Source: Candidatus Contubernalis alkaliaceticus
GTDB taxonomy: Bacteria > Bacillota > Dethiobacteria > SKNC01
NCBI RefSeq assembly: GCF_022558445.1
Contig: NZ_CP054699.1
Location: forward strand, 2,154,004 to 2,178,003
Direction of reading: 5' to 3'
DNA length: 24,000 bases
Below are positions 1,753-23,149 of the stretch, in pieces. A program made the translations under genes and the position numbers. The notes below the pieces were generated by a model, which worked only from the letters and a program-made list of their open reading frames with translations, ran no database searches and was not told the origin of the DNA. Numbering within the stretch: position 1 is the first letter of the stretch; each line of letters opens with the position of its first letter.

Positions 1753-3660
1753 TCATCCTCTTACTGGTTTAATTTTTTTAATATCTGTAGTTCTAACCAT
1801 AGCCAATGCCTGTTGAACTACATTTTCGACGCTTAACCCACATTTTTCCAGTAGATAATCCCGTTTACCTTGTTCCACAAAATGGTCACAAATACCTAAT
1901 CTTTTCACCTCTAAATGAGCCATATCTGATGAGTCCAATAATTCAAGCACAGCACTGCCAAATCCACCCTGCAGCGTGTTATCTTCCATAGTAATTATTT
2001 TTTTACATTTATGAGCTATACTTAGTAGAAGATGATCATCTATGGGTTTTACAAACCTGGCGTTGACCAGAGTTGTTTTTAAACCGTACGTTTTCAATTC
2101 TTCAACAGCTTTACGGGCAATTGGAACCATCGCCCCCAGAGCAAAAATTGCCAGGTCTGAACCCTTTTCCAAAATTTCTGATTTACCCATTTCAATTATA
2201 TCAAAATCAAAGCCTATAGGGACTCCCACCCCATGACCCCGGGGGAACCTTATAGCCACAGGGCCATCATACTGGATGGCTGTAAATAACATGTTCTGAA
2301 GTTCTCTTTCGTCTTTAGGAGCCATGACTACCATATTAGGGATATGCCGCAAAAAGCATAGATCAAAGGTGCCCTGATGGGTTTCCCCATCTTCCCCCAC
2401 AATTCCTGCTCTATCCACAGCCAAAATCACCGGTAGTTTTTGCAAACAAATATCGTGGACAACCTGATCATAGCCCCTCTGTAGAAAGGTTGAATAAATA
2501 GCAACCACAGGCTTAAAACCCTCCTTGGCCATTCCAGCACTGAAAGTAAGGGCGTGCTGTTCGGCAATCCCTACATCAAAAAACCGGTCAGAATATTTAA
2601 ATCCAAATTTGTCCAGGCCGGTACCTGAGGGCATAGCTGCCGTTACTCCTATTATGCGTTTATCTTTTTCGGCCAATTTAATCAAAGTTTGGCTGAAAAC
2701 TTCTGTATACGTAGGGATTTTAGAATTTTTTACCGTATCTCCATTTTTTATATTGAAAGGACCTATCCCGTGAAATTTATCAGGATTCTTTTCAGCGATT
2801 TTAAATCCTTTTCCCTTTTTAGTTAAAGCATGGATAAGAACGGGCCCTTTTAATTTTTTTGCACTCATAAACACCTGCCTGAGATGATTTATATTATGTC
2901 CATCTATGGGCCCAAGATAAGTAAATCCCAGTTCTTCAAACAACATACCTGGAACCAGCAGGTATTTCAAAGTATCTTTCACTCTGCCTAAAGACTTGTA
3001 AACCGCATCCCCTATGGCTGGTATTTTTCGCGTCAAAACTTCTACGTCTTCTTTGATTCTAGAATAAGTGGGGTCTGTCCTGATCCTGCTTAAGTAAGCA
3101 GATAAACCACCTACATTTTTTGAAATGGACATTTCATTATCATTTAAAACTACTAATAAATTAGTTTTGGTATGAGAGGCATGATTTAGAGCTTCAAAAG
3201 CCATTCCTCCAGTAAGAGCCCCATCTCCAATTACAGCAATTACATGATGTTCCTCTTTCTTTAAATCCCTGGCCATAGCCATCCCCAAAGCTGCAGAAAC
3301 TGAGGTGCTGCTGTGACCGGTTTGAAATACGTCGTGTGGACTCTCTGAGCACTTAGGAAATCCACTTAAGCCGCCGTGACACCGAAGTGTTGAAAAACAA
3401 TCTTTTCTTCCGGTAAGAAGCTTATGTACGTAAGACTGATGCCCTACATCCCAAATGATTTTGTCCCGGGGGCTTTCAAAAACACTGTGTAAAGCTATAG
3501 TTAATTCTACGACTCCCAAGTTGGCTGCTAAATGTCCTCCATTTAACGAAACCGTAGTAGTTAGAGTTTCCCTAATTTCTTTAGAAAGTTGACTTAAACT
3601 TTCAGATGTTAATTTTTTTAAATCTAAGGGACTTTTAATTTCCTCAATAACTCCGGACAT
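1753..3660 (-). CDS. dxs: 1-deoxy-D-xylulose-5-phosphate synthase
   Basis: 635 aa. Contains GGHLAANLGVVELT, DVGHQSYVHK, GHSSTS, the ThDP motif IGDGALTGGMAFEALN...NDN and the transketolase-like C-terminal half (IAEQHA..). Confidence 0.96.
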   Translation of the reverse strand: MSGVIEEIKSPLDLKKLTSESLSQLSKEIRETLTTTVSLNGGHLAANLGVVELTIALHSVFESPRDKIIWDVGHQSYVHKLLTGRKDCFSTLRCHGGLSGFPKCSESPHDVFQTGHSSTSVSAALGMAMARDLKKEEHHVIAVIGDGALTGGMAFEALNHASHTKTNLLVVLNDNEMSISKNVGGLSAYLSRIRTDPTYSRIKEDVEVLTRKIPAIGDAVYKSLGRVKDTLKYLLVPGMLFEELGFTYLGPIDGHNINHLRQVFMSAKKLKGPVLIHALTKKGKGFKIAEKNPDKFHGIGPFNIKNGDTVKNSKIPTYTEVFSQTLIKLAEKDKRIIGVTAAMPSGTGLDKFGFKYSDRFFDVGIAEQHALTFSAGMAKEGFKPVVAIYSTFLQRGYDQVVHDICLQKLPVILAVDRAGIVGEDGETHQGTFDLCFLRHIPNMVVMAPKDERELQNMLFTAIQYDGPVAIRFPRGHGVGVPIGFDFDIIEMGKSEILEKGSDLAIFALGAMVPIARKAVEELKTYGLKTTLVNARFVKPIDDHLLLSIAHKCKKIITMEDNTLQGGFGSAVLELLDSSDMAHLEVKRLGICDHFVEQGKRDYLLEKCGLSVENVVQQALAMVRTTDIKKIKPVRG

Positions 3661-3669
3661 TTAACGCTC

Positions 3670-4269
3670 TCACTTTCTCTTTTTGTTTGATTTATTATTC
3701 CAAGGGATAATTCCCGGAATAAATTGATCCAGGCGAGTTAGAATCAAGCTGATCATAAAAATTATAGAATTTGCTCTTTCCAGGGCAATTATTTTTCCCA
3801 CCGCCTTACCTCCCACCGTCAAGGAAGCGATAAAGCCGGTCATAACCACACTGAACAGCGCTCTGTCAATACCCGGTTGTTCTGACACAAAACGAACCAC
3901 CAGAGCAGCTCCAATTACACCACTGACAATTCCACTAATATCACCTACTACATCGTTACAGAAATTAGCTACCTGATCTGCATTTCTTACCAAATATATG
4001 GCCCTTTTGGCACCAGAAACTTTTTTTGCAGCCTTAGCATGAAAAGGAGTCTCGTCGGCTGCTGTCGCAGCAATTCCAATGGTATCAAATATAATCCCAA
4101 TAATCACAACCAGCAACAAAATTATAAAAGAAATTATTAGTGATTGTATATTTTCTAACAAAAACTCAGAAGCTATACCTATAAGTACTGCTAAAATAAA
4201 AGTCCCTAAAGAAACGACTAAAACCCATTTTAGACGGGGACGCAAAAAATTATAATCATTATCTGACAA
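3670..4269 (-). CDS. oapA: Small polytopic membrane protein, proposed OLE-associated protein A (OapA)
   Basis: 199 aa with at least four hydrophobic helices (WVLVVSLGTFILAVLIGIA; LIISFIILLLVVIIGIIFDTIGIAA; ISGIVSGVIGAALVV; LFSVVMTGFIASLTVGG). TTG start with AAGGGTGA SD. It lies immediately 3' of the ~600-nt non-coding segment and 5' of dxs, which is the position of oapA in OLE loci. No diagnostic OapA residues could be checked from memory. Confidence 0.65.
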   Translation of the reverse strand: MSDNDYNFLRPRLKWVLVVSLGTFILAVLIGIASEFLLENIQSLIISFIILLLVVIIGIIFDTIGIAATAADETPFHAKAAKKVSGAKRAIYLVRNADQVANFCNDVVGDISGIVSGVIGAALVVRFVSEQPGIDRALFSVVMTGFIASLTVGGKAVGKIIALERANSIIFMISLILTRLDQFIPGIIPWNNKSNKKRK

Positions 4270-4284
4270 AAGATCACCCTTTTA

Positions 4285-4892
4285 AACAAAAAAAATAGAC
4301 TTAAGCTTATACAAAGTTATGCGTAGACAGTAGTCCAAAGAGTAAACGTTGCGGCTTAGGTCCAGCAGGTTTTCCCCAGTAATTACCAAATCGTTGCCGT
4401 ATTGGCGGTTACCCTTTAAAATTACTTCTACCGTGTCGCCACCGATAGGACTGGATTGCCACTTAGTCCGCACTTTAATCCCCTTTGGACCTCTCTAGAT
4501 GAGAACAGTCTAGGAGTTTTCCTCAATAATTCACCCTATCCTCTAGCCTCTTTTGCAGGGATGGTTTCGAGAAGGATGATTCTCTCCCTCCATCACCACT
4601 CAAGGCAGGCTACACTGTACACAGCTTTGGACCGCATACAGGTTCTATCCCAACCAGTAATCATTTACTTATTAGGTAATTCACCACCAAATTGGGTCTC
4701 CACGGAACCAGGGTCAACGCCTACATGCCATTGTAGATCGCCCCGATTCCTTAACCCTCAGCACCAACCCCTGACTGGGCGTCAAGAGCCAGCACCAAGA
4801 ACTTCATCGTTGTGCCCTCAGCGGATTTTTAGCCCCGCCTTCAAAGATAGGGGTATTAACTAGAATACTGCACCACCTACGCTTATTTAACT
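4285..4892 (-). ncRNA. ole: Large structured non-coding RNA, best explained as OLE (ornate, large, extremophilic) RNA
   Basis: About 690-bp gap between ispA and the membrane-protein gene with no credible CDS. Sampled 60-nt lines are ~50-60% G+C, versus ~25% in the neighbouring CDS, and the minus strand is G-rich. It has a dedicated sigma-A promoter. Short local stems and long-range complementary 7-8-mers are visible. The ispA-[RNA]-4TM protein-dxs-tlyA-nadK-recN context is the known OLE locus. Ends are approximate: the 5' end is inferred from the promoter, and the 3' end is placed before the downstream SD. Confidence 0.7.
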
Positions 4893-4897
4893 CCTAA

Positions 4898-4926
4898 AGT
4901 ATAGCATATTTTTCAAGCTGTAACAA
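4898..4926 (-). promoter_or_regulatory. Sigma-A type promoter driving the non-coding RNA (and probably the downstream membrane gene/dxs)
   Basis: Minus strand: -35 TTGTTA (4926-4921), 17-nt spacer, extended -10 TGcTATACT (4906-4898). Predicted start is near 4891-4892. Confidence 0.6.
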
Positions 4927-4961
4927 CTTGAACTACACCCCTTAGTGAACCTTTTTTTCCT

Positions 4962-5843
4962 CTAATAATCCCTGTTAACTAAAAAATGGGCCAGGATTTT
5001 AAGCACTTCTCCTCTAGCTTCAAAAACCTCCACGGCTCTCAGGGATTCATTATATAATTCCTTAACTTTTTCCTTGGCTGCACTTAATCCGTGTATCCCC
5101 GGATAAGTAGCCTTTTCTTTCCAAGTATCCATCCCGGTCTTCTTCCCAAGCTTTTCCTCTTCTCCCTCGATATCTAAAATATCATCAATGATTTGAAAGG
5201 CCAGTCCCAAGCATTCACCATACCGTGTAAGCCTCTCCAACTCAGCCTCTGCTGCACCTGCGATTATTCCACCCACCCTGACTGATGCATTAATCAGTGC
5301 TCCGGTTTTTTTTCTGTGAATGTAATCCAGCGTTTCAGCTCCAACAGGTCTACCTTCGGATTTCAGGTCAACCACCTGTCCTCCAATCATACCTCTGGTT
5401 CCCGAGGCAAAAGCAATTTCTTGAATTACCTTTAAAGTTACTTGAGGATCAATAACAGAATCCCAAGACAAGACATCAAAAGCCATAGTAAGCAGAGCAT
5501 CTCCAGCCAGGACTGCCATGGCTTCACCATAAACCTTATGATTGGTAAGCTTACCCCGGCGATATTCATCATCATCCATAGCCGGAAGATCATCATGGAT
5601 TAGGGAATAGCAGTGTATCATCTCCAATGCACAGGCCGCCGGTAAAAACAGAGACAAATCCTGATGGTAAACATCTCCCACCGCCAGAGTTAAAATAGGC
5701 CTTAACCTTTTACCTCCCGCAAAAATACTGTATCTAATACTGTCATGAATAATATCAGGATAGGTTTTCTTTGGAGGTAGAAACCTGTCCAACGCGTCAT
5801 CCACCAACTCTTTTCTTTGCTTCAGGTATAGTTCTATCTCCAT
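4962..5843 (-). CDS. ispA: (2E,6E)-farnesyl/geranylgeranyl diphosphate synthase
   Basis: Both aspartate-rich motifs of trans-prenyltransferases are present (LIHDDLPAMDDDEYRRG and FQIIDDILD). The ORF track starts at 5855, but the GGAGG SD sits 5 nt before the second ATG (MEIELY...), so the start is taken as 5843. Confidence 0.9.
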   Translation of the reverse strand: MEIELYLKQRKELVDDALDRFLPPKKTYPDIIHDSIRYSIFAGGKRLRPILTLAVGDVYHQDLSLFLPAACALEMIHCYSLIHDDLPAMDDDEYRRGKLTNHKVYGEAMAVLAGDALLTMAFDVLSWDSVIDPQVTLKVIQEIAFASGTRGMIGGQVVDLKSEGRPVGAETLDYIHRKKTGALINASVRVGGIIAGAAEAELERLTRYGECLGLAFQIIDDILDIEGEEEKLGKKTGMDTWKEKATYPGIHGLSAAKEKVKELYNESLRAVEVFEARGEVLKILAHFLVNRDY

Positions 5844-5874
5844 AAAAACCTCCATACTTACCGGTAATCAGTTT

Positions 5875-5958
5875 GACAGGGGACAGTGGACAGTAAATAG
5901 TCAAACATCATCGATCTGCCGATATATGTATCTGTCCCCGTGACCAACTGTCCCCTGT
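5875..5958. repeat. Palindromic intergenic repeat (copy 1 of the GACAG/ACAGTTGG family)
   Basis: ACAGGGGACAGT (5876-5887) is perfectly complementary to ACTGTCCCCTGT (5947-5958). An inner GGACAG (5888-5893) is complementary to CTGTCC (5932-5937). It shares the string ATCTGTC..(C)AACTGTCCCCTG with the copy at 14521-14540. Confidence 0.7.
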
Positions 5959-6016
5959 AAAGGGAAAGGCCCCCCATATAATACAGGAGACCTTTAATAA
6001 CTACATTATAAACTTC

Positions 6017-6874
6017 TTACGCGTTTTGTGCTTCACAGCCCATAATAGTATGTTTGCAAAGAACGATAGTGGTTACGGAACCAACTCCACCGGGAACCGG
6101 AGAAATCTGCTCTACAATACCTTCTACGGCAGCAGTGTTAACGTCTCCACAGTATTTGCCGGGGTTATCAGGATCTTCGTTGATACCCACATCAACCACG
6201 ATTTGGCCGGGTTTTACGTATTTTTCATCAACCATCTTGGCTCTTCCCACAGCAGCAATCAAAATATCCGCATCAGCACAAACGGCGGGCAGATTGTCAG
6301 TTCTCGAATGACAGATGGTAACGGTAGCATTTTCCCGAAGCAAAAGCATTGCTACAGGCTTTCCAACAACCATGGAACGACCAAGGACAACAGCTTTTTT
6401 ACCACTTAAAGGAACGTTATAAAACTTTAACAGATCCATGCAGGCGGTAGGTGTGCAAGGAGGAAATCCGGAAACGTCATCAGAGAATACCTTGCCGGCG
6501 CCTGCCTGGGTCATGCAGTCAACATCTTTTTCTACGGGAATTAAAGAACGGATTTTCGCCTCATCCAACTGCTTGGGCAGAGGGGAGAACATAAGAATGC
6601 CGTTAATTTCTTTGTTGTTGGCAACATCAGTCATACCTTTTTCAAAAGTGGCTTGATCAACATCCTCAGGGTATGCAAAAACTTCAACTTCAACGCCAAT
6701 GGCACCTAAGGTCTTTGTAGCACCCTTCTCATAGTACAGATCATCGGGGCGACCACCGGCTCTTACGATGCCCAGCTTAGGAGTAAGCCCCTTAGCTTTT
6801 AAATCTTCAACCCTTTTGGTCAGTTCTTCCTTCATTGCATCAGCAACGGCTTTACCTTTTAATCTTTCGGCCAT
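6017..6874 (-). CDS. FolD-family methylenetetrahydrofolate dehydrogenase, divergent paralog (probably dehydrogenase only)
   Basis: 285 aa with the FolD fold signatures ([40 protein letters not shown]). The cyclohydrolase positions are substituted when aligned by eye to E. coli FolD: YxxxK reads YEKGA (Lys to Ala) and GILVQLPLP reads GILMFSPLP (Gln to Phe). Confidence 0.85.
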
Positions 6875-6894
6875 ATTATATAATACCTCCTTAA

Positions 6895-7530
6895 TTATTT
6901 TGTAAGCTTATCAATAACCAACTGCAGAGTTTCATCAGCAACCCTGTTGCCATCTTCCAAAAGCCTTTTCATCTCTTCTGAGGTGTTCTTCACGTACTCC
7001 TCATCTTTAATGGAATTTACATTGATCAATACGTTCTGCATACCGGAAACTAAAGCTGCTTTTAAAAATACAACCCCGCATCCCACGTCGGAGATAGCCA
7101 ACTTAGATCCAATCTGGCCCATTCTCTCATGAATCTTAATCCCTTCATAAGACTTCCGCATGATATCCATGGGAACTGTACAGGCTAACTTGGAACATTC
7201 TTCCATAGTATCTGCTTTGAATTTCTTCTGCTCGTCAGTTTCTGTGGGCAAACCGTAAGCCTTGGACAGAGGCTCAAATACTTCGGCGTCTTTATCTACC
7301 AGCACTATTAATTCTTCAAGGACCTTATAACCTTGAGCCAATAGTTCCTTAACTTCATCCTCAACATCAGCATATTTTTTCTTACCAACGGTCAAGTTGC
7401 CCACCATGTTAGACAAAGCCATCCCAATGGCACCGCCTAAAGCTGCTGCTCCACCACCGCCCGGCACAGGGGCTTTAGAAGACAATACGTCAAGAAAGTC
7501 AACACAAGTTCTATCTACCATTTTTGTCAT
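6895..7530 (-). CDS. fchA: Methenyltetrahydrofolate cyclohydrolase / formimino-THF cyclodeaminase family protein
   Basis: 211 aa. The N-terminal [35 protein letters not shown] motif is typical of the FTCD C-terminal/FchA family. Adjacent to a FolD-family dehydrogenase, as in clostridial C1 clusters. Confidence 0.85.
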
Positions 7531-7604
7531 TAATACGTTCCTCCCTTTACTTTAATAAATATATCTTTCTTAAATACACCAGGATTTAAATTAAAATCCT
7601 GGTC

Positions 7605-8471
7605 TTATTGAACAAATGTTGCATGATGAATACTTTTAAAAGACTGCAATGTGTTAAGCATAAACATGGTATCCGTCATGGCTCCCACTTCTCCAGGAGG
7701 GGTGATAAAACCAGCTACCTGTGAAACTTTTAAGAAATCCACATCTCCCAGAACCCTGTCTCCCACCCGGTTTATGCCTACATCAATTACCACCGCACCA
7801 GGTTTCACCCATTCCTTTTTTACCAGCTGAGGACGACCGATAGCCACTACTAATACATCGGCCATATAACAGACTTCAGGAAGATTAGCTGTACGGGAAT
7901 GACATGTTGTCACTGTAGCGTCTTGTTGAAGAAGAATCGCCGACATAGGCTTTCCCATAATGTTGCTTCGGCCCACTACAACGGCATGTTTTCCCTTCAA
8001 ATCGTAATTGATACTCGTAAGCATTTTTAAGCAGGCCAGGGGAGCAATGGGAATATGAGTTTCTTCCTCCCCTAAAATCAAGTTTCCCATATTAGCCGGA
8101 TGAAGGCCGTCAACCTCCTTATGGGGTTGAACTGCCTCTATCACTCTGTGTTCATCGAGATAATCGGGTAGCGGAAGCTGCACACGAATGGCATGGATAT
8201 TATTATTACTATTGAACCTATGAATTACGGCAATTAATTCTTCTTGGTTGATGGTTGCCGGGAAGCTCTTCACTACAGAAAAAAAACCCAACTCCTCTGC
8301 CATCTTCTCTTTGTCTAAAGCACTGGCCCTGGATACAGGATTATCCCCCACCAATATAATGGACAAACCGGGGCGTTTTCCTGTCTGCTCCCTGATTTTA
8401 TGGACCTCTTTAATGATTTCATCTTTGATTGCTTTTTCAACAACCGGTCCCCTGATTAGTTCGGCTGTCAT
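7605..8471 (-). CDS. folD: Bifunctional-type methylenetetrahydrofolate dehydrogenase/cyclohydrolase FolD
   Basis: 288 aa with PGLSIILVGDNP, VQLPLP, KEVDGLHP, VVGRSNIMGKPMS, TTCHSRT, IDVGINR. The catalytic Lys and Gln positions are retained. The Tyr of YxxxK reads Ser (SALDK). Confidence 0.9.
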   Translation of the reverse strand: MTAELIRGPVVEKAIKDEIIKEVHKIREQTGKRPGLSIILVGDNPVSRASALDKEKMAEELGFFSVVKSFPATINQEELIAVIHRFNSNNNIHAIRVQLPLPDYLDEHRVIEAVQPHKEVDGLHPANMGNLILGEEETHIPIAPLACLKMLTSINYDLKGKHAVVVGRSNIMGKPMSAILLQQDATVTTCHSRTANLPEVCYMADVLVVAIGRPQLVKKEWVKPGAVVIDVGINRVGDRVLGDVDFLKVSQVAGFITPPGEVGAMTDTMFMLNTLQSFKSIHHATFVQ

Positions 8472-8622: not shown

Positions 8623-9570
8623 TTACTGCAACTTATATAATACATTTCTTATCAAGCCATAATATGAGATTCCTACAGCATTGTCTGAAGATAATTTTGA
8701 ACCGGCGAAATAAAACCGACACTCCGGCAGTCTTATCTCTAACTGCTGTCTGATAAAAACATTAGAACCTACTCCCCCTACTATCATCACCTCTTTTATT
8801 CCCGTTTCCCGTATCCCCTGCTTTAAAACAGCCACCAGAGAATTAATGGCACATATTTCAATTCCTCTGGCCAAATCCCATGGTTCTATGATGCTGCTGC
8901 TCATCAACCTCTCCACATGGGAAAGGGGACCGGAAAAACTGGTCCAGCAGCCCTTTATTGAAACAGGTATAGGAATAGGGTTCCTGCTCTCACGCGCCAG
9001 CTTCTCTAGGGACGGCCCACAGGGAAAGGACAGGCCTAGTTTAACTCCGACCCTGTCAATGAACTGCCCTAAAGGCAGGTCAGAACTTCCTCCTATCATA
9101 TCCAAGGTTAGAGCTTGACTTTCTTTATTAACTTTCATTAATTCCGTGGTGCCCCCGGAAATATGAAGGACTAAAAAATCCGCCGGATGCTCCTGGACAG
9201 AAAATAAGCCTGCCCAGATATGCCCCTCCTGATGGGTGGTGGGATAAAGAGGGACTCCCAGCAGACGGGAAAAACTTAAAGCATAAGATTCCCCCACCTT
9301 AAATACCGGCATATATGAATTCTCAGCCGGCCTGGGTTTTACACTGACCGAAATACAGGAGGTTTTTTTAAAATCAAAATTATTTCCAGCTGTTTCCAAT
9401 AAAAGAGGGACATTCTTCATGTGCTGAAAAACAGCTTTTGACTGTCTTAAACCCTTATCCCCAGGTTTCACCTCCAGCAGTATTCTTTCATCAATTAACA
9501 ACTCCCCGTTATGATTCACAACCGCCAGGGAAGTAGTATATCCGCTGGTATCAAAACCCATAGAGTACAT
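8623..9570 (-). CDS. TsaD/Kae1 (Peptidase_M22, ASKHA fold) family protein, divergent paralog
   Basis: 315 aa. N-terminal GFDTSGYTTSLAVV (compare GIDTSCDET.VA), metal-binding HQEGH (the HxEGH motif of TsaD), ISGGTTEL and C-terminal SSDNAVGISYYG (compare CTDNGAMIA). Confidence 0.6.
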   Translation of the reverse strand: MYSMGFDTSGYTTSLAVVNHNGELLIDERILLEVKPGDKGLRQSKAVFQHMKNVPLLLETAGNNFDFKKTSCISVSVKPRPAENSYMPVFKVGESYALSFSRLLGVPLYPTTHQEGHIWAGLFSVQEHPADFLVLHISGGTTELMKVNKESQALTLDMIGGSSDLPLGQFIDRVGVKLGLSFPCGPSLEKLARESRNPIPIPVSIKGCWTSFSGPLSHVERLMSSSIIEPWDLARGIEICAINSLVAVLKQGIRETGIKEVMIVGGVGSNVFIRQQLEIRLPECRFYFAGSKLSSDNAVGISYYGLIRNVLYKLQ

Positions 9571-9638: not shown

Positions 9639-10049
9639 TTAACTTTTGCTATCCTTGTCTTTTAACACACTGTCAAGAATACCGTTTATAAATTTAGCTG
9701 AGTCATCCCCATTATAGACCTTCGCCAGTTCAATAGCTTCATTAACTGAAACCACCGGTGGGATATCCTCCTCAAACTTGATCTCGTATACCGCCAATCG
9801 TAAAAGGCTACGGTCAATCCCTGAAATACGAAGAATATTCCATCCACGCAGGTATTTCTGAATAAAGCCGTCAATAACCCCCATATGTTCTAAACATTTC
9901 TCAATGATCTCTTTTACCTGGATTTTTTCTGAGGCAGTTAACGTTTCTTCCTCCAGCCAGTTTTCTCCTAAAAAATCAGGCAGGTTATTACCCACATCGA
10001 TTTGAAAAAGCACTTTAAAAACTGTCTCTCTGACCCCTCTACGACTCAC
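9639..10049 (-). CDS. nusB: Transcription antitermination factor NusB
   Basis: 136 aa. R..RE.VFKVLFQ.D at the N-terminus, the RL...DRSLLRLAVYE box and NEAIELAK.Y..D.SAKFINGILD. GTG start 6 nt after GAGGAGGG. Confidence 0.92.
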   Translation of the reverse strand: MSRRGVRETVFKVLFQIDVGNNLPDFLGENWLEEETLTASEKIQVKEIIEKCLEHMGVIDGFIQKYLRGWNILRISGIDRSLLRLAVYEIKFEEDIPPVVSVNEAIELAKVYNGDDSAKFINGILDSVLKDKDSKS

Positions 10050-10093
10050 ACCATACCCTCCTCAAATGAAAAACCACCAACTTGGTGGCTAAA

Positions 10094-10327
10094 TTACCAA
10101 TCATGTTTGTTTGGAGGCCACAAATTTTCTAAAAAATTTTCCCAGTTATGGCTTTTCTCCATGACAGCACCTAAGTAAATTCCTAAAACCATACAGACCA
10201 TTATAAATGAGCCTTTTAAAAAACCAAATCTTAAGAAAATAAATCCCAAGATGAGTCCGGCCACCGCACCCAAAATTTTTCCCATATTTTCAATTAATAA
10301 TTCATTCCACCGGACGTTTTTCATCAA
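10094..10327 (-). CDS. Small integral membrane protein (DUF2273-like), third gene of the Asp23 module
   Basis: 77 aa with two hydrophobic helices (KILGAVAGLILGFIFLRFGFLKGSFIMVCMVLGIYLGAV). Lies directly after the AmaP-like gene, as in asp23 operons. Confidence 0.6.
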   Translation of the reverse strand: MMKNVRWNELLIENMGKILGAVAGLILGFIFLRFGFLKGSFIMVCMVLGIYLGAVMEKSHNWENFLENLWPPNKHDW

Positions 10328-10366
10328 AGCACCTCGCTTCTCATTTTTTTAATTAACTGTAGATGC

Positions 10367-10885
10367 TCATCCTGTCAAATTATCCAGAACTACTTTCACT
10401 TCAACCACTAAAATCCCTGTCATTAACTCCAAATGTTCTTTCACAGACATCTGAAGTTCTTCCACTAATTGAGGTATATTTTTTTGAGGGGGGCTGCTGA
10501 TATTTATACTTACCCCTATACCTTCCTTGAAATTTCTTACTTTAATTTTGTTTACTTTAGAATTGTCCTTTTGAGACACAGCATTCTGAACCAGATTCTC
10601 TACTGCCGGGACAGAGATATTAATATCCCCCAGAGCCACCTTTAAAGAAACATATTTTTGAATTTGAGAAACCTTAAGCCCTTTTAGCAAAAGGGGTAGT
10701 GCTATCGAGAGCAAAACCAAAGAGGGGACAACTAACCACAGATTACCATAATATAAGCCCAGGCCTGTCCTTACATATTCCAGAGATACCAAAGGCAGGG
10801 CTAAAAAAAATAATCCTATAGATATAAAAAGCAGAAGTAAAGCCATAAAAACTAAAAAAAATTTCTCCGTAAGTTTCATCGACAT
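10367..10885 (-). CDS. amaP: Alkaline shock response membrane anchor protein AmaP-like
   Basis: 172 aa. Two N-terminal TM helices then a soluble tail. Immediately downstream of an Asp23-family gene. The assignment rests on architecture and context. Confidence 0.55.
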   Translation of the reverse strand: MSMKLTEKFFLVFMALLLLFISIGLFFLALPLVSLEYVRTGLGLYYGNLWLVVPSLVLLSIALPLLLKGLKVSQIQKYVSLKVALGDINISVPAVENLVQNAVSQKDNSKVNKIKVRNFKEGIGVSINISSPPQKNIPQLVEELQMSVKEHLELMTGILVVEVKVVLDNLTG

Positions 10886-10905
10886 AACCCCTTTTCTAGC
10901 TAAAA

Positions 10906-10929
10906 CCCCCTGAAATCAGGTTCAGGGGG
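10906..10929 (-). terminator. GC-rich hairpin between asp23 and amaP (partial terminator/attenuator)
   Basis: CCCCCTGAA (10906-10914) pairs with TTCAGGGGG (10921-10929), a 9-bp stem with a 6-nt loop, flanked by A-run/T-run on both sides. On the minus strand it is followed by TTTTAGC. Confidence 0.5.
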
Positions 10930-10945
10930 TTTTATTATTTTAAAT

Positions 10946-11320
10946 CTATTCCTCTGTCTTCTGAAAACTTACTCCTTGTACTTGAATATTTATCTCAGAA
11001 ACCTTTAAACCAGTCATATATTCCACAGCCTTGATTACCTTCTCCTGCACCTCCATGGCTACGGAGGGAATGGGAATTCCATACTTTACAGTGATAAATA
11101 TATTAATGAAAGCTTCTGTCTCTCCTACTACAACCTTTACCCCTTTGGATAAATTTTTCTTTTTCAATATATCCACTATATCACCGGCAAATCCACCGCT
11201 CATCTCTGCTACGCCTTGGACTTCAGCAGTGGCCAGGCCTGCAATAATGGCAACAACCTCATCGGCTATTTTTATTGCCCCAAGTTCGCTGGTTTGGTTA
11301 TTCTCGGCCAATAATTTCAC
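10946..11320 (-). CDS. asp23: Asp23/Gls24-family (alkaline shock protein) envelope stress protein
   Basis: 124 aa. G.I.IADEVVA.IAGLAA.EV.GVA.M......D.........KGV.V.....E..I.I...V.YG..IP.V...VQ.KV..AVE.MTGL.V..INI.V.GV matches the DUF322/Asp23 pattern. Confidence 0.85.
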   Translation of the reverse strand: MKLLAENNQTSELGAIKIADEVVAIIAGLATAEVQGVAEMSGGFAGDIVDILKKKNLSKGVKVVVGETEAFINIFITVKYGIPIPSVAMEVQEKVIKAVEYMTGLKVSEINIQVQGVSFQKTEE

Positions 11321-11406
11321 CTCCTGAATTTTTCTGCTTGATTTCTTATATTATACCAATTATCACCGAAAAATTCAATTTACGAGGCTTTAATTTGACA
11401 AATATA

Positions 11407-11925
11407 TTAATTGTTAGCGATCACCAATATGTTTTCCAGCTTTTCTTCAGTTATTTTAGCTGTAGTTTCCGCGATTTGAAAAAACTCAGCATCGGTAATT
11501 TCCTCCGCCTTTACCACTACATTGGCTGCGCCATCTTTAAAAAAGAACACTACATCTTCAAAACCTTTGGCTTTAATCATATTCTCCAGCATCAGCTCCT
11601 GCTCCATTTTAGAAACTAAAGAGATTAATTTGTTCTCCGCCTCCTGCTTGGCTTCACTGCTGGAAGAGGTATTATTGACAATATCCTTTAGCAGCTCAAT
11701 TTCCTGTCCTCTTACCCGATCCCTCTGCATTCGATACTCCACAAAATAAGTGCTCCCATCTACTTCAACGTCCCCCAGATTTACAGTATCCTCAAGCATC
11801 CCCCTAATTCCATCATCCTGGGGAATAAGAGTTACTTCTTGAAGCTCTTTTTCAACGTTGAACCACCATATAAAACCAGAAAAAAGAGTTAACAAAACAA
11901 CCGCCCAAATAGTTTTATTGTTCAT
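11407..11925 (-). CDS. spoIIIAH: Stage III sporulation protein AH
   Basis: 172 aa. N-terminal TM anchor, FVEYRMQRDRVRGQEIELL, then E..LEN.IKAKGFEDVVFF..DG.ANVVVKAEE.T. Last gene of the spoIIIA block. Confidence 0.85.
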   Translation of the reverse strand: MNNKTIWAVVLLTLFSGFIWWFNVEKELQEVTLIPQDDGIRGMLEDTVNLGDVEVDGSTYFVEYRMQRDRVRGQEIELLKDIVNNTSSSSEAKQEAENKLISLVSKMEQELMLENMIKAKGFEDVVFFFKDGAANVVVKAEEITDAEFFQIAETTAKITEEKLENILVIANN

Positions 11926-11972
11926 ATAGATCCCTCCATTTTATAATCTTTTAAGCCCCCCGCTAAAAGGCA

Positions 11973-12638
11973 TTATCTGCCCCTGGGCAGTACCACTACT
12001 TTATGATAGGGAAGGTCTAAAATCGTTTTTACTGCCTCTACGATTTGAGACTTCTTTATGGGCTGCTCCACCCCCCGGGCTACCACCAAAACCCCCTGAA
12101 CTTCGGGATGTATCTCTTCTATGATTAAAGGTATTTCCTCTCCGTTTTCTCCCCTTCTCAACACTATATTATCCTTGTGGTTTTCTTCCATTATATCCCT
12201 AGACCCACCATCCTTGTCCCTTTCCTCCGTCTGCCGGATATTTTCCTCATAATTGGCAGCATAAATATATTTAGATCCAGCATAAAAACTAATCATGACT
12301 GAAACATCTGATACCCCCTCAATCTCGCCAAGAATGTTTTCCAGATCCTTTTCCATTTTCTCTTCCTGACTATCCTGTTTATTAGCAAAAACTGAAAGAG
12401 CTTCTTCCTCAGTCCAATTTACAGTCTCTGAGGGACTTTTGTCAGTGTTATTCGTAAAAAATGAACTGAACATCATCAATAAAGCCCCTGCCAATAATAT
12501 TAAAATCCATCTTAAATCTTTTTTTTGTTTAGTCATTTTCTGTTCATTCTTTTTATCTGGAGAACAGAACTGCACAAATATAAAATTATTTTTAAGCTTT
12601 TCCCAAAAAGCAGACAACTTACCCTCACCCCCAAACAC
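11973..12638 (-). CDS. spoIIIAG: Stage III sporulation protein AG
   Basis: 221 aa. A single TM (WILILLAGALLMMF) and the conserved C-terminus GVLVVARGVEQPIKKSQIVEAVKTILDLPYHKVVVLPRG, similar to B. subtilis SpoIIIAG. Confidence 0.88.
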   Translation of the reverse strand: MFGGEGKLSAFWEKLKNNFIFVQFCSPDKKNEQKMTKQKKDLRWILILLAGALLMMFSSFFTNNTDKSPSETVNWTEEEALSVFANKQDSQEEKMEKDLENILGEIEGVSDVSVMISFYAGSKYIYAANYEENIRQTEERDKDGGSRDIMEENHKDNIVLRRGENGEEIPLIIEEIHPEVQGVLVVARGVEQPIKKSQIVEAVKTILDLPYHKVVVLPRGR

Positions 12639-12645
12639 TGTAACC

Positions 12646-13269
12646 TTACTTCACAAAAAATAAATCTATTGAATCCTTTTCCAGAGAAAAATGGCTGGAA
12701 ACATCTTCAGCAATATTATCTAACTTAAAAAGATGCTCCTGTGTAAGCTCCTCCAATTCCTCTTCCGTCACCCCTTCACCCCCCACTTGAATTACCACTG
12801 AATCTATAAAAATACCCTCCTCCTGTTTTTCAGCTCTCCGCGGTTTTAAAGCAATACTCATAGCCAAAATATTTCCAAAATCTTCCCTTTCTATATCCTC
12901 AACAATTTCAACAGTAACGTTGACTATTTCTACCCCCCCGTAACTTTCCGCCAATTTCTTAATTTCGCCTGTTATACGGCGTTTATACTCCTTGGCAATC
13001 AAGCTCTGGGACTGCTGCACTGCATAATTATCCACATAACTTTGTCCTTCATAGATATGTATTTGAGACTTCAGAATTTCCATTTCCAAGTCCGGAACGA
13101 TCCTGAAAAGCTGCAGCATAGGATTTAAAATGCTGACTATAATAACCAAACCAACTATCAGCTTAATATAGGGCTGATACTTATTCTCCGGAAGGATTAA
13201 TTCCATAAAAGAAGCTAAAATAATAATAATTACTAAACTTTTTACCACTTGACTTATGGTGTGGAGCAA
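12646..13269 (-). CDS. spoIIIAF: Stage III sporulation protein AF
   Basis: 207 aa. Two N-terminal TM helices with the ELILPENKYQPYIKLIVGLVIIVSILNP motif. Correct position in the operon. Confidence 0.85.
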   Translation of the reverse strand: MLHTISQVVKSLVIIIILASFMELILPENKYQPYIKLIVGLVIIVSILNPMLQLFRIVPDLEMEILKSQIHIYEGQSYVDNYAVQQSQSLIAKEYKRRITGEIKKLAESYGGVEIVNVTVEIVEDIEREDFGNILAMSIALKPRRAEKQEEGIFIDSVVIQVGGEGVTEEELEELTQEHLFKLDNIAEDVSSHFSLEKDSIDLFFVK

Positions 13270-13282
13270 GAATTTTCACCCC

Positions 13283-14608
13283 TCATGTCCGTAACATAAC
13301 AGCTGCATTTCCTGCCCCCATAATTATCACCAGGATGATAAAAAAAATCATACTTACCGCTACAACTGCTGCAAAAATTAAAAGCAGGCTGTTGCCCATG
13401 GTGTTAAGGCAGTCACATAATGAACTATCCCCCAGAGGTTGTATAAGAGCAGAGGAAAACTTATAAATAAATACTATTGATATAATTTTCAAAAGGGGAA
13501 AAACCAGGGACAAAAAAAGGATTATAATTCCCGCCAGGACCAATCCATTTGTTAACAGCAAAGATGCTCCGATTACTGCTTCCAGAGCTTCGGCCACCAT
13601 CCCACCTACCACGGGGATAAAAACTCCTGTAACGAACTTCGCGGTGCGAAGAGTCACTCCGTCGCTTACCGCTCCCGCTACTCCACTAATGGAAAGTATA
13701 CCCACAAAAATAGTTAGAGATAAACCCATAATAAAAATGGCGGCGTCTTTAAATAACTGTCCTAACCTGGATATCTTAAAATTTTCTGAAAAACTATCCA
13801 ATAAAAGCAGCACCGTAGCTAAAAAAATTAAAGGAAAAACCAAATTTTTAACTAAAATCACTATAAAACTTGCAGAAAAAATAATCACCGGCTGAAATAT
13901 AGCAGCAGAACCCAGGCTTCCCAGGGTAGCTAACAAAGTTAGCAGCAGAGGAATGAGAGCCATAATAAAATCTGACATCCTCTCAATTACTGATTGTCCA
14001 ATACTGATGGCCAGGGAAAAACTCTGCAGAGCAATACTCATCAGCAATATAAATATGATTCCCTGAGCTAAACTGCTAAGCTTAGAACTGCTGAATGCCT
14101 GCTGCAGGTTTTTTAGAAGGACTGCAATCACCGCCAGGATTACCAGACGTCCCATAAAATACAAATTGGCCGTTACTTCCTTGAACAAATAACTGCAAAG
14201 ACCCTTAAATATTCCCATCAGGTCCAGCGGGCTTTCTCCTCTTCCCCTTATCCAATCAAAAATATCATTAAACTCCATGTGAGGCAGATAATCATCCATT
14301 TCTCCGGTAATCTCCTGCCAGTACTGCTCAATAATCTTTAAATCCACCACATCTTTTTGGTCTTCCCACAACTCTTCTTCCAAAGGCATGGCAAACAAAA
14401 CTGAAGACTTTAAAAACAAAACTAAAAATATTACCACCGTAGTAAAGGAGACGATTCTTTTTTTAGGCTGACAGTTGGACAATGGATCAGTTTGACAGTT
14501 AGGAACGAACTGATTTTTGTTATCTGTCAACTGTCCCCTGGCCTCCCCAGGTTTTGGTATTACCAAAACTTGCCACCGCACTTCACTGTTTTTTATTAAT
14601 TTATCCAT
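13283..14608 (-). CDS. spoIIIAE: Stage III sporulation protein AE (polytopic membrane protein); 5' end uncertain
   Basis: 441 aa. Strong similarity by eye to B. subtilis SpoIIIAE (GVTLRTAKFVTGVFIPVVGGM, IYKFSSALIQPLG). The ATG at 14608 has an AGGTGA SD 4 nt upstream. The first ~47 codons have no B. subtilis counterpart, and codons ~23-47 are encoded by a repeat element. Confidence 0.88.
   Translation of the reverse strand: MDKLIKNSEVRWQVLVIPKPGEARGQLTDNKNQFVPNCQTDPLSNCQPKKRIVSFTTVVIFLVLFLKSSVLFAMPLEEELWEDQKDVVDLKIIEQYWQEITGEMDDYLPHMEFNDIFDWIRGRGESPLDLMGIFKGLCSYLFKEVTANLYFMGRLVILAVIAVLLKNLQQAFSSSKLSSLAQGIIFILLMSIALQSFSLAISIGQSVIERMSDFIMALIPLLLTLLATLGSLGSAAIFQPVIIFSASFIVILVKNLVFPLIFLATVLLLLDSFSENFKISRLGQLFKDAAIFIMGLSLTIFVGILSISGVAGAVSDGVTLRTAKFVTGVFIPVVGGMVAEALEAVIGASLLLTNGLVLAGIIILFLSLVFPLLKIISIVFIYKFSSALIQPLGDSSLCDCLNTMGNSLLLIFAAVVAVSMIFFIILVIIMGAGNAAVMLRT
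14467..14540. repeat. Palindromic repeat (copy 2, compact) inside the 5' end of the spoIIIAE ORF
   Basis: Nested arms: GACAGTTGGACA (14470-14481) pairs with TGTCAACTGTC (14525-14535), and ATCAGTT (14486-14492) pairs with AACTGAT (14508-14514). It shares GCTGACAGTTGG, CAGTTAGGAACGA and TTATCTGTC.ACTGTCC with the expanded copy at 14635-14815. Confidence 0.7.
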
Positions 14609-14635
14609 GTTCTCACCTGTATTTTTATAATTTAG

Positions 14636-14877
14636 CTGACAGTTGGTCGGTTGGTCGGTTGGTCGGTTGGTCGGTTGGTCAGTTGGATAGTTGGATAGTT
14701 GGATAGTGGGATAGTTGGATAGTGGGATAGTGGGATAGTGGGTCAGTTAGGAACGATCTTTTTTTATTATTTGTCCAACTATCATCTATCCAACTGTTAT
14801 CTGTCCACTGTCCTGTCCAACTGTCATCTTTTGTCTGTTATCTATCTAACTATCCATCTATCCAACTATCCAACTAC
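14636..14877. repeat. Expanded palindromic repeat (copy 3): two opposed arrays of an 8-nt unit filling the spoIIIAD-spoIIIAE spacer
   Basis: Left arm 14645-14748 holds 13 head-to-tail octamers: GGTCGGTT x4, GGTCAGTT, GGATAGTT x2, GGATAGTG, GGATAGTT, GGATAGTG x3, GGTCAGTT. Central A/T-rich segment at ~14749-14772. The right arm (14773-14877) is a degenerate array of the complementary unit (CCAACTAT / CCAACTGT / CCAACTAC). Confidence 0.9.
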
Positions 14878-14884
14878 CCCCCAT

Positions 14885-15271
14885 TCAGGGAATTAAAGAA
14901 ATAATGGTTTCCAGGACTACTACCACCAAAGGTATTGCCAAAAATAATATTATGATTTTCCCTGCAAATTCTATCTTGCTGGCCGTGGTCCCCTCCCCTG
15001 CATCTCGGCAGACCTGGGCTCCAAACTCTGCAATGTATGCAATACCGATTATTTTTAAAAGGGTATTTAAATACAAAAGGTTAATGTCTGCCCTAATGGT
15101 CAATTCTTCTAATATATACAGCACACTGGATATATAGTTCATCATCGATAAAAAGATAATAACCCCTACGGCAATAGATAAAAATATAGCCAGCTCCGGT
15201 TTACTTTCCCTTAAGATTAATATAAAGACGGCGGCTAAAAGGCCAAGAGCTACAACCTGTATAATGGTCAT
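14885..15271 (-). CDS. spoIIIAD: Stage III sporulation protein AD
   Basis: 128 aa. The LLKIIGIAYIAEFGAQVCRDAGEGTTASKIEFAGKIIIL block is near-identical to B. subtilis SpoIIIAD. Confidence 0.93.
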   Translation of the reverse strand: MTIIQVVALGLLAAVFILILRESKPELAIFLSIAVGVIIFLSMMNYISSVLYILEELTIRADINLLYLNTLLKIIGIAYIAEFGAQVCRDAGEGTTASKIEFAGKIIILFLAIPLVVVVLETIISLIP

Positions 15272-15290
15272 AAATAAGGAAAACCTCCGG

Positions 15291-15497
15291 TTAATAAATG
15301 TTAAAAATCGTCCTTATGCTGATAAAAAGCTCATTAATCAGCTGTATTACCACCATCAGTACGATCACCACCCCCACCAGGGTAAGCATTTGCGCCTGTT
15401 CTTCCTTATTGGCCTGTTTTAAAACCATATTTAAAACGGATATGAAAATGCCGATTCCAGCGATTTTAAATAGGATGTCTACATTTACGATATCCAT
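15291..15497 (-). CDS. spoIIIAC: Stage III sporulation protein AC
   Basis: 68 aa with two TM helices. IAGIGIFISVLNMVLKQANKEEQAQMLTLVG resembles B. subtilis SpoIIIAC. Confidence 0.9.
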   Translation of the reverse strand: MDIVNVDILFKIAGIGIFISVLNMVLKQANKEEQAQMLTLVGVVIVLMVVIQLINELFISIRTIFNIY

Positions 15498-15513
15498 CTA
15501 CAACTCCCCTTTA

Positions 15514-16035
15514 CTAATAAAGCAGAATGACCAGCATTAATCCACCCATAACGCCCAGGTAACGCCACATTCTTTCGTTTTTGTGCATGGCCTCCAAAGC
15601 ATCTTCTTCAGACTGCTCCAACTGATGAAGAATCAGCTTAATTTGCTTTTCCTGATGCTGTTGATCCGATACTCCTATAAAAGAACTAATAGACAAAAGC
15701 AGGTCTTCATCACTTTTCAACAAAACAGTTTGGTGAAAATATTCCTTCACCACCCTCCGCCAAATAGTGGAAAAGTCATCTTGAGACGGGTCATCTAACA
15801 GTTGTGAACTTTTTAAGAAAAAGCAAGATATGGGCTCATCTATTCTGCTCCCGATTTTTTTAAAAGCAGCAGGGACCGGTGTAGCCGTGTAACTAATCTC
15901 TGAGCTGAGCATATTAAAAGCTGTTTGCAGACACCTTAACTCCCTTATTCGTTCTCGATATTTACCAGCCTTCATAAAACCCAGGATTGTTGCGGCCATC
16001 AATATCATTACTGCTCCAATAAAATTAATTAACAT
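15514..16035 (-). CDS. spoIIIAB: Stage III sporulation protein AB
   Basis: 173 aa. N- and C-terminal TM helices, with RIRELRCLQTAFNMLSSEISYTATP and QQHQEKQIKLILHQLEQSEEDALEAMHKNERM resembling SpoIIIAB. Confidence 0.88.
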   Translation of the reverse strand: MLINFIGAVMILMAATILGFMKAGKYRERIRELRCLQTAFNMLSSEISYTATPVPAAFKKIGSRIDEPISCFFLKSSQLLDDPSQDDFSTIWRRVVKEYFHQTVLLKSDEDLLLSISSFIGVSDQQHQEKQIKLILHQLEQSEEDALEAMHKNERMWRYLGVMGGLMLVILLY

Positions 16036-16053
16036 AATTTCACCATCTCATTA

Positions 16054-17025
16054 CTATAATAAAAGGTTTCGAGACTTTTCCTCATCCCAGATCCTTTCTA
16101 CTGTACCTACTCCTTTGGACATTCCCAAAATAATAACTCTTTGAAAAACTTTGCTTTCAAACAACCTTTTTAGCCCGGGCCTTTCTCTATAATCTTTCAT
16201 GCTACTGCCGTGAGCTGTGGTTATTACAGAAACTCCGGCATTCAGAGCTTCTTCCACGGCTGCAGCATCTTCAATTTTACCAATCTCATCGGTGACCAAA
16301 ACCTGAGGAGACATAGACCGTATTAAAATCATCATTCCCTGAACTTTGGGGCAGCCGTCAATAACATCTGTCCTGATTCCAATATCATTCTGTGGAACCC
16401 CTTCATAGCAGGCAGCAATCTCAGAACGCTCATCAACCAGTCCTACTTTAACTCCAGAAAAACCATAAGAATCAACGCCGCCGCTCAAAAGCCTGACCAA
16501 ATCTCTCAGTAAAGTAGTTTTTCCACACTGAGGTGGAGAAACAATCAAAGTACTGTAAACATAACTATTTTTTCCCAGTAAGTAGTGAACCACTTTCTCC
16601 CCTGCACCGATTACCTCCCGGGATATTCTAATATTGACTCCAGAAATATATTTCTGAAGCTTTATCCTGCCATCTACCATTACCGCTTTACCCACCAGTC
16701 CGATGCGATGTCCCCCGGGAACGGTTAAATACCCGTTTCTTAACTCCTCTTCAAAAGCATAAAGAGAATGATTGCTGATAGTCTGCAGCAGCTGTTGTAA
16801 TTCCTCTTTTTTTAACCTGTAAGCATCCTCTTTTCTTTTTACGGCTTCTCCCCGAATATTCAGCATTACATCTCCCTGGGACCAAACCAACATCAGCGGC
16901 CTTTCTTCCCGCAAGCGGATCTCCTGAACTTTATCCAACAATAAGGGGGAGCATCTTGTAATAATTTTTTTAATAATAGGGGGCAACAAAGGCGTGATTT
17001 GTTTCATAATGATTTTTGTAGACAT
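16054..17025 (-). CDS. spoIIIAA: Stage III sporulation protein AA (secretion-type AAA+ ATPase)
   Basis: 323 aa. Walker A SPPQCGKTTLLRDL and Walker B-like QVLVTDEIG. First gene of the eight-gene block. Confidence 0.92.
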   Translation of the reverse strand: MSTKIIMKQITPLLPPIIKKIITRCSPLLLDKVQEIRLREERPLMLVWSQGDVMLNIRGEAVKRKEDAYRLKKEELQQLLQTISNHSLYAFEEELRNGYLTVPGGHRIGLVGKAVMVDGRIKLQKYISGVNIRISREVIGAGEKVVHYLLGKNSYVYSTLIVSPPQCGKTTLLRDLVRLLSGGVDSYGFSGVKVGLVDERSEIAACYEGVPQNDIGIRTDVIDGCPKVQGMMILIRSMSPQVLVTDEIGKIEDAAAVEEALNAGVSVITTAHGSSMKDYRERPGLKRLFESKVFQRVIILGMSKGVGTVERIWDEEKSRNLLL

Positions 17026-22214: not shown

Positions 22215-22266
22215 ATGTCCTTATCCTTCCCTAAAAAAAATTGAATCTTTCATGAACACATTAACT

Positions 22267-22680: not shown

Positions 22681-22686
22681 ACCCTC

Positions 22687-23145: not shown

Positions 23146-23149
23146 CCCA

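Follow-up and report, generated by a model that had tools for sequence, protein, structure and literature searches.

An OLE RNA gene with a short P9 arm upstream of oapA in Candidatus Contubernalis alkaliaceticus

Introduction

What occupies the 692 bp that separate ispA from a membrane-protein gene in the genome of Candidatus Contubernalis alkaliaceticus? The gap (positions 4270-4961) extends from the stop codon of ispA to the TTG start of a gene coding for a membrane protein of 199 amino acids (aa), and belongs to a stretch of 24,000 nucleotides (nt) of contig NZ_CP054699.1 (positions 2,154,004 to 2,178,003), referred to here as the window, whose first letter is position 1. The host is an alkaliphilic, anaerobic and syntrophic bacterium of soda lakes. 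An earlier interpretation made from the letters of the window (the sequence-only reading) had nominated the gap as a candidate for OLE RNA, a family described in 2006. OLE is among the largest bacterial non-coding RNAs still without a known biochemical function, and each well-annotated example therefore has some value. Known OLEs are distributed among anaerobic or extremophilic Bacillota, across which a survey of GTDB genomes published in 2024 counted 2,822 matches (PMC11332333). The lineage of the host (Bacillota, class Dethiobacteria) fits this range.

Identity of the RNA and its relatives

The gap contains an OLE RNA. When the whole window was scanned against Rfam 15 with gathering thresholds, a sole match was returned, which assigns 4892..4311 on the minus strand to RF01071 (OLE) with 498.9 bits (E 8.2e-144), the cut-off of the model being 50 bits. 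The match spans model positions 1-616 of 616, and the gene is therefore not truncated and measures 582 nt. The OLE candidate proposed in the sequence-only reading is thus borne out by a highly significant covariance-model match over the full length of the family model. In the family, about 25% of nucleotides are more than 97% conserved; near-invariant blocks such as GUGGUGCAGUAUUCUAGU, CGAUGAAGU, AUUAAAGUGCGGACUAAGUGG and CUGGACCUAAGCCGCAA, in upper case in the consensus of the Rfam alignment, are matched almost letter for letter. The surroundings agree as well: nusB, folD and ispA are found upstream of the RNA, and dxs, a tlyA-like gene and nadK downstream. The neighborhood named earlier for OLE (nusB, folD, ispA, OLE, oapA, dxs, tlyA and nadK) is accordingly present in full on the minus strand up to recN, which lies beyond the window; a RecN-like gene follows tlyA in two relatives, L006 and L007. 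We hold it to be nearly certain that this locus is the ole gene of Ca. Contubernalis alkaliaceticus, with the transcription, folding and function proposed below. The family has been described and this member is unremarkable: it counts as already known, and the standard Rfam model finds it at once. Neither Contubernalis nor Dethiobacter was found in the one supplement file of PMC11332333 that was searched, and a prior listing of the locus is unconfirmed.

The window OapA, product of the gene downstream of the gap, is 100% identical to a hypothetical protein of Ca. Contubernalis alkaliaceticus. Exact-sequence look-ups of OapA and IspA from the window gave no match, most likely owing to the TTG start being read as L or to another start having been called for the gene. 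OapA has 2055 homologues, seven of which adjoin OLE in the loci fetched. These seven homologues are 51-90% identical to the window OapA and include those of Ca. Syntrophonatronum acetioxidans and Dethiobacter alkaliphilus. All seven loci carry a full-length OLE (478-511 bits), located directly upstream of the OapA homologue in six of them.

Two of these relatives depart from the window in their own ways. About 17 nt are missing from the apex of P7 in the OLE of L005 (2896-3461), which nevertheless reaches 478 bits, so that the length of P7 is variable within the clade. In D. alkaliphilus (L008), OLE (1026-1610, 479 bits) is intact but separated from oapA (3501-4094) by the insertion of a transposase gene of the IS110 family on the opposite strand (1921-3132), and a canonical G+C-rich terminator follows OLE, unlike in the window.

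Secondary structure and binding motifs

The window OLE and those of the seven relatives were folded together with RNAalifold, without the Rfam model. The consensus of these eight sequences, which are kindred and in which many pairs are invariant, comprises 191 pairs, 43 of them with compensatory double changes, and recovers P1, P2, P3/P3.1, P4-P9 and P10-P15 (Table 1). A covariation analysis of homologous regions had been suggested in the sequence-only reading, and it supports the structure in this independent set. Helices are named after PMC12265935 and PMC12286853; the naming of P2 and P3 is inferred.

P1 displays compensatory changes from U-A to C-G at two positions, in three sequences each. 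The helix assigned to P2 contains a CUAG palindrome and would correspond to one of the two OapA-binding regions mapped in PMC12265935. P3/P3.1 surrounds domain 1, and published proposals have it crossing the membrane; P3 and P3.1 usually total 12 bp according to PMC12265935.

Four pairings had previously been picked out by hand, one of which belongs to the conserved structure: GUCCAAAG (4490-4483) with CUUUGGAC (4340-4333) is part of a conserved 11-bp helix of domain 2 in which eight pairs covary. The other three are wrong. The second copy of GUCCAAAG (4632-4625), also put forward as a partner of CUUUGGAC, sits at the apex of P8 and spans its loop. AAUUACC, placed at 4691-4685, is located 10 nt away at 4681-4675, inside the P7 hairpin, and its supposed partner GGUAAUU (4387-4381) pairs locally with 4426-4420. 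Finally, GGACU and AGUCC, taken for the two sides of a local stem, each pair with a distant strand in the consensus. As for P8, an attempt to compare its length across genomes by fuzzy anchor matching was dropped, the anchor having matched inside the stem, and the assessment of P8 is based on the Rfam alignment.

Protein-binding motifs are present in domain 2. P13 carries a GNRA tetraloop and a single bulged nucleotide (one unpaired column, occupied by G, A or U), and a second GNRA loop is found in P14.1. Binding of OapB needs a GNRA loop and a bulge, P13 being the primary and P14.1 the secondary site (PMC7936274), and by their sequence P13 and P14.1 are predicted to play the same roles here. 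Neither oapB nor oapC is in the 24-kb window. In domain 1, the loops CUAAAAAU, GCCCA and AAUGGCAU do not vary among the eight sequences, and the A-rich motif CUAAAAAU of L4 occurs in each of the 67 OLEs examined (the window, the seven relatives and 59 loci among the matches listed in the survey described below). According to PMC12286853 and PMC12265935, the A-rich loop of L4 forms dimer bridge B1 through A-A pairs, and according to PMC12265935 the GCCCA loop of P5/P5.1 makes an intermolecular kissing contact with the complementary loop of P6/P6.1. The window OLE possesses the motifs of both contacts, B1 and B2, and is predicted to dimerize.

Table 1. Features of the ole-oapA locus in window coordinates
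Feature	Position	Strand	Description
ispA	4962-5855	-	farnesyl-diphosphate synthase; NCBIfam FPPsyn 372 bits
Sigma-A-type promoter, extended -10	4898..4926	-	TTGTTA 4926-4921, 17-nt hexamer spacing, TGcTATACT (TGCTATACT) 4906-4898
P1	4882-4872 (GCGUAGGUGGU) with 4331-4321 (ACUGUCUACGC)	-	11 bp; closes the whole RNA
P2 (inferred)	4871-4860 (GCAG...UCUAG) with 4513-4505 (CUAGACUGU)	-	9 bp, almost invariant
P3/P3.1	4858-4843 with 4543-4527	-	13 bp, six with compensatory changes
P4 hairpin	4820..4839	-	A-rich loop CUAAAAAU; Rfam alignment, RNAalifold
P5/P5.1 long hairpin	4755..4801	-	20 bp; GCCCA loop, invariant
P6/P6.1 hairpin	4704..4750	-	19 bp; AAUGGCAU loop; compensatory changes at three pairs
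P7 hairpin	4649..4696	-	full length; Rfam alignment, RNAalifold
P8 hairpin	4612..4643	-	13 bp
P9, short form	4546..4606	-	apical loop AAUCAUCC; 43 nt between anchors
Domain 2 (P10-P15)	4332..4504	-	Rfam alignment, RNAalifold
Domain 2 helix	4491-4481 with 4342-4332	-	11 bp, eight with compensatory changes
P13 hairpin	4428..4448	-	CUAUCG-G-UG (GCGA) CACGGUAG; 8 bp, GCGA (GNRA) tetraloop
P14.1 hairpin	4385..4406	-	9 bp with compensatory changes; GCAA (GNRA) tetraloop
U8 tract	4288..4295	-	26 nt after P1; 92% conserved
oapA ribosome-binding site	4272..4281	-	AAGGGUGAUC; read from the sequence
oapA	3670..4269	-	199-aa membrane protein; TTG start; distant CNNM/DUF21 relative

Promoter and transcript ends

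The extended -10 promoter described in the sequence-only reading is present as described, and its conservation in the relatives supports it. A promoter scan yielded 13 sites versus 6.0 +/- 2.3 in shuffled sequences, and a single consensus match therefore means little. In the six closest relatives, identity to the window amounts to 97% for the -35 element and 96% for the extended -10 element, and to 43% for the 35 nt upstream of the promoter, 74% for the spacer and 60% for the stretch between the -10 element and P1. D. alkaliphilus possesses a different but equivalent promoter element, TGTTACAAT. Transcription is predicted to start at 4892-4890, 10 nt before P1. The start near 4891 proposed earlier falls on the first position of the Rfam model. 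It has the same place relative to P1 as in Halalkalibacterium halodurans, for which experiments showed a proximal ole promoter that raises OLE expression more than 100-fold and 5' ends at the start of P1 (PMC3413148).

No terminator was found by scanning the sequence between ispA and the OLE promoter, and co-transcription with upstream genes is therefore possible, as reported for OLE in H. halodurans. The scan between OLE and oapA found none either, and with no convincing terminator after OLE, read-through into oapA is likely. The U8 tract that follows P1 is preceded by weak A+U-rich hairpins only, the local folds of the closest relatives reaching no more than -3 to -5 kcal/mol. For this reason the tract was not accepted as an intrinsic terminator; it is at most a leaky one. 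The start codon of oapA lies 41 nt past the end of the Rfam match and about 50-51 nt past P1. Its ribosome-binding site AAGGGUGAUC, which we take to be complementary to the 3' end of 16S rRNA, keeps GGTGAT in the five closest relatives and reads GGTGGT in L006 and L007.

OapA, a probable distant relative of CNNM proteins

The hydrophobic segments of OapA (about 15-35, 43-68, 107-127 and 138-182) are consistent with about four transmembrane helices. Across 26 aligned homologues, the residues of a basic cluster extending from K79 to R95 (K79, K82, K83, K88, R89 and R95) are invariant or nearly so, and the loop motif that contains them, HAKAAKK..GAK.AIYLVRNAD, is largely kept. The Pfam CNNM family is matched by 22 of the 26 members (best E 4.8e-8). 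No PDB sequence was matched by an OapA profile at E up to 1; the five best PDB fold matches to an AlphaFold2 model of the protein are all CNNM/CorB/CorC transmembrane domains from archaea and bacteria, 7m1t, 7cfg and 7cff among them. Judging from profile and model, OapA may share the DUF21/CNNM transmembrane fold, a weak but specific likeness that agrees with the published relation between OapA and MpfA (PMC11332333; PMC12265935). OapA would thus resemble the MpfA/CorC/CNNM Mg2+ transporters in its transmembrane fold, but differs from them by having neither CBS nor CorC_HlyC domains, and it has been proposed in the literature that domain 1 of OLE RNA supplies functions equivalent to those of these domains.

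The short P9 arm

In the Rfam alignment, 44 model positions of the distal P9 are replaced by 6 nt in the window OLE, and the 43 nt that lie between the conserved flanking anchors contain no self-complementary tetranucleotide. The distribution of this form was surveyed by looking for the conserved 5' P9 anchor in a single genome of each species, which gave at least 120 matches. About half of them were chance matches in non-Bacillota contigs and were removed by requiring the 3' P9 anchor too. Among the matches listed, 59 new loci with both P9 anchors were kept, which together with the window and the seven relatives make the 67 OLEs mentioned above. The length between the anchors is bimodal: 53 of these 59 loci among the matches listed have 73-96 nt, and a short P9 of 36-48 nt is found in the other six, in the window and in all seven relatives. 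The predicted apical loop of the long P9 contains a palindrome in 44 of the 53 loci among the matches listed (GGCC in 42, GATC in one and AGCT in one), and any 4-nt palindrome is present in one of the 14 short forms, the window having none. One kept locus, with an OLE-type P9 and both anchors, lies on a contig labelled 'uncultured Desulfovibrionaceae' (L052), which is probably a case of mis-binning and resembles the 24 non-Bacillota OLE matches discussed in PMC11332333.

According to PMC12286853, the kissing loop L9.3 forms dimer bridge B3, and GGCC, GAUC and AGCU cores are reported to covary. This loop is not a family-defining feature, as six of the 59 other OLEs among the matches listed do without it. 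Since the lineage lacks both the distal arm of P9 and its GGCC kissing loop, any dimer formed there would be without the P9 arch.

Short P9 stems are mentioned for the 'variant 1' OLEs (Fernando and Breaker 2024; PMC11332333). Variant 1 shortens P7 and P8 and variant 2 lacks them (PMC11332333), whereas both are of full length in the window; the OapB site on P13 is often missing from variant 1 (PMC11332333) and intact here; and the variants belong to gut symbionts with reduced genomes (PMC11332333), unlike the host of the window, which is free-living and has a contig of 3.56 Mb. Because its P7, P8 and OapB site are intact, the window OLE is a milder variant than variant 1. On balance, the evidence leaves us evenly divided on a broader claim, that the Dethiobacteria OLEs and about 10% of the others among the matches listed constitute a natural 'P9-short' subtype, in which P7, P8 and the OapB site were kept and the P9.3 arm and GGCC loop lost.

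The absence of the B3 loop in a whole clade and in about one in ten other OLEs among the matches listed bears on which dimer contacts are essential. Should P9-short OLEs still dimerize and function, B3 would not be needed, and B1 and B2 would make up the minimal dimer interface. Should they not dimerize, some lineages would have an OLE that works as a monomer. In both cases, the P9-short subtype offers studies of OLE structure and function a deletion already made by nature.

Comparison with known OLE systems

The OLE of H. halodurans (RF01071) and that of the window are alike in their helices, in their conserved single-stranded stretches, in their position between ispA and oapA-dxs, in the proximal promoter situated just before P1, in the GNRA tetraloop and bulge of P13, and in being carried by extremophilic or anaerobic Bacillota. 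They differ in the distal P9 arm, which is about 35-40 nt shorter in the window and whose loop is not self-complementary. Their hosts also differ, H. halodurans being a relative of Bacillus and Ca. Contubernalis a syntroph and obligate anaerobe within the Dethiobacteria.

The dimers of Clostridium acetobutylicum and Clostridium botulinum OLE solved by cryo-electron microscopy (PMC12286853) offer a second comparison. Their L4 (B1) and GCCCA/AAUGGCAU loops (B2) are also found in the window, where they are invariant, and the lengths are similar (577 nt for the Clostridium OLE versus 582 nt). Bridge B3 of the Clostridium dimers (L9.3, with a GGCC/GAUC/AGCU core) has no counterpart in the window, where P9 is capped by a short hairpin whose loop is AAUCAUCC.

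Proposed mechanism

The following scheme can be proposed for the locus. Transcription of OLE would start at a high level from the conserved extended -10 sigma-A promoter, some 10 nt ahead of P1. Transcripts may also run through from ispA, and a fraction of the transcription probably extends to oapA, dxs and tlyA. The RNA of about 570 nt would then fold into two domains, domain 1 (P4-P9) and domain 2 (P10-P15), with P1 closing the molecule and P2, P3 and P3.1 forming a long connecting helix. By analogy with H. halodurans and Clostridium, from which all steps after folding are carried over, dimers of OapA, encoded directly downstream, would bind OLE and anchor it at the membrane. OapB is likely to bind the GNRA tetraloops of P13 and P14.1, and OapC and bS21 probably bind too. 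OLE would itself dimerize through the A-rich L4 loop and the GCCCA/UGGC (P5.1/P6.1) kissing loops. The resulting particle could aid the response to stress (alcohols, cold, excess Mg2+ and poor carbon sources), most plausibly by modulating the handling of divalent cations through the CNNM-like OapA.

Weighing the evidence

Several observations weigh against the identification of the locus as an ole gene acting in this manner, or against parts of it. The long P9 arm with a self-complementary L9.3 kissing loop is missing from the window OLE, so that one feature of the published dimer model is inapplicable here. Regarding OapA, the 21 bits that the window protein reaches with Pfam CNNM fall short of the 28.4-bit cut-off, its AlphaFold2 model is of moderate quality (pLDDT 66.8), and the fold matches are weak (probability 0.84-0.99, TM 0.35-0.51, Foldseek E 0.1-0.3). 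The promoter, the 3' end and the abundance of the RNA in Ca. Contubernalis are predictions, and the mechanism outlined above is the leading hypothesis of the field rather than a demonstrated one. None of this contradicts OLE membership. Family membership, a covarying structure, synteny, promoter conservation, a lack of coding potential, protein-binding motifs and two of the three dimer motifs are all directly supported at this locus. The abundance of the RNA, its membrane localization, dimerization and protein partners, and its physiological role would be those described in other species.

The least improbable of the alternatives, to which we nevertheless grant very little likelihood, makes the RNA mainly a long structured 5' leader acting in cis on oapA-dxs-tlyA instead of a free-standing stable RNA. 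The lack of a convincing terminator between the RNA and oapA speaks for such a role, as does the OLE promoter being the nearest one upstream of oapA, and the U8 tract and the oapA ribosome-binding site are conserved together. However, OLE in H. halodurans is a discrete, exceptionally stable and abundant RNA that gives a single northern band (PMC3413148), and P1 closes the window RNA 50 nt ahead of the oapA start. Moreover, the IS110 element and the canonical terminator part an intact OLE (479 bits) from oapA in D. alkaliphilus, and the RNA is therefore maintained there without being a leader. A decaying or non-functional OLE remnant, suggested by the loss of the distal P9 (the 44 consensus positions replaced by 6 nt and the missing GGCC kissing loop), is so improbable that it can practically be set aside. 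All other OLE elements are intact and near consensus, the short P9 is still a helix with compensatory changes, and it is found in all of eight genomes among which OapA identity is only 51-90%. Conservation also extends to the promoter and to oapA, and short P9 stems have already been described in natural OLE variants (PMC11332333).

The same negligible weight is given to the idea that the gap encodes one or two small proteins. The only open reading frames (ORFs) of at least 50 aa, one of 63 aa (4282..4473, minus strand, GTG start) and one of 135 aa (4456..4863, plus strand, TTG start), overlap each other by 18 nt. Both are intact in the window and the shorter one also in the three closest relatives, an apparent conservation that stems from the constraint on the RNA sequence. 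Both are disrupted in L005-L008, by 2-7 stop codons or by frame shifts, while the RNA keeps 478-505 bits. Variable columns are spread over the codon phases without bias, at the third position or otherwise (25/22/27 and 45/33/36 for the two ORFs), and variation is concentrated in compensatory base-pair changes. The sequence-only reading had seen no credible coding sequence in the gap, and the decay of the ORFs in L005-L008 and their lack of codon periodicity confirm this view. The coding, cis-leader and pseudogene readings are all rejected, and the ole gene is retained.

The sequence-only reading had also appealed to base composition. Its hand-counted G+C values are exact (0.60 for 4741-4800, 0.50 for 4561-4620 and 0.25 for 4081-4140), but these lines are extremes and the contrast was overstated: the whole OLE RNA has 47.6% G+C versus 40.4% for the window, a modest difference. 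The G excess of the minus strand is likewise real (166 G versus 111 C), but it is common to the flanking genes and hence not specific to the RNA.

The gains are modest: a clean locus annotation for a syntroph of soda lakes, comprising the promoter, the helices, the protein-binding sites and the downstream oapA with its start codon, together with comparative evidence that the proximal ole promoter of H. halodurans is conserved in a distant class. The small value that remains comes from the P9-short subtype and the conserved promoter.

Neighboring genes

In Bacillus-type OLE neighborhoods, xseA and xseB usually lie between folD and ispA. Both are absent from the window, where the gap between folD and ispA measures only 161 nt (5856-6016); in place of the upstream xseA and xseB of H. 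halodurans, folD-fchA-folD and a TsaD-like gene are found between nusB and ispA. Two FolD paralogues (285 and 288 aa) flank FchA, a methenyl-tetrahydrofolate cyclohydrolase of 211 aa (6017-8471, minus strand), and this order is kept in the closest relatives (L001 1-1664, L003 1-1741). The arrangement may be tied to the C1 metabolism (Wood-Ljungdahl type) of a syntrophic acetate oxidizer. The gene between nusB and folD (8623-9570, minus strand; also L005 123-971) codes for a paralogue of the TsaD/Kae1 family, which is probably not the housekeeping TsaD since it scores 133.6 bits versus an NCBIfam cut-off of 207.8.

Further upstream, the minus strand carries the classic yqh/spoIIIA block of Bacillota (9639-17025), with spoIIIAA-AH, an Asp23 gene (yqhY-like, 10946-11320), amaP, a DUF2273 gene and nusB. 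PMC12265935 places yqhY among the genes most often associated with ole. An ORF of 142 aa between efp and spoIIIAA (17205-17633, minus strand) gives a weak HNH-endonuclease match (E 7.6e-5). Finally, a minor-pilin cluster on the same strand (21735-23578) consists of four consecutive small ORFs with type IV pilin-like features. An N-terminal methylation motif is present in three of them, including one that matches GspH as well, and one of the four gives a weak PilX_N match.

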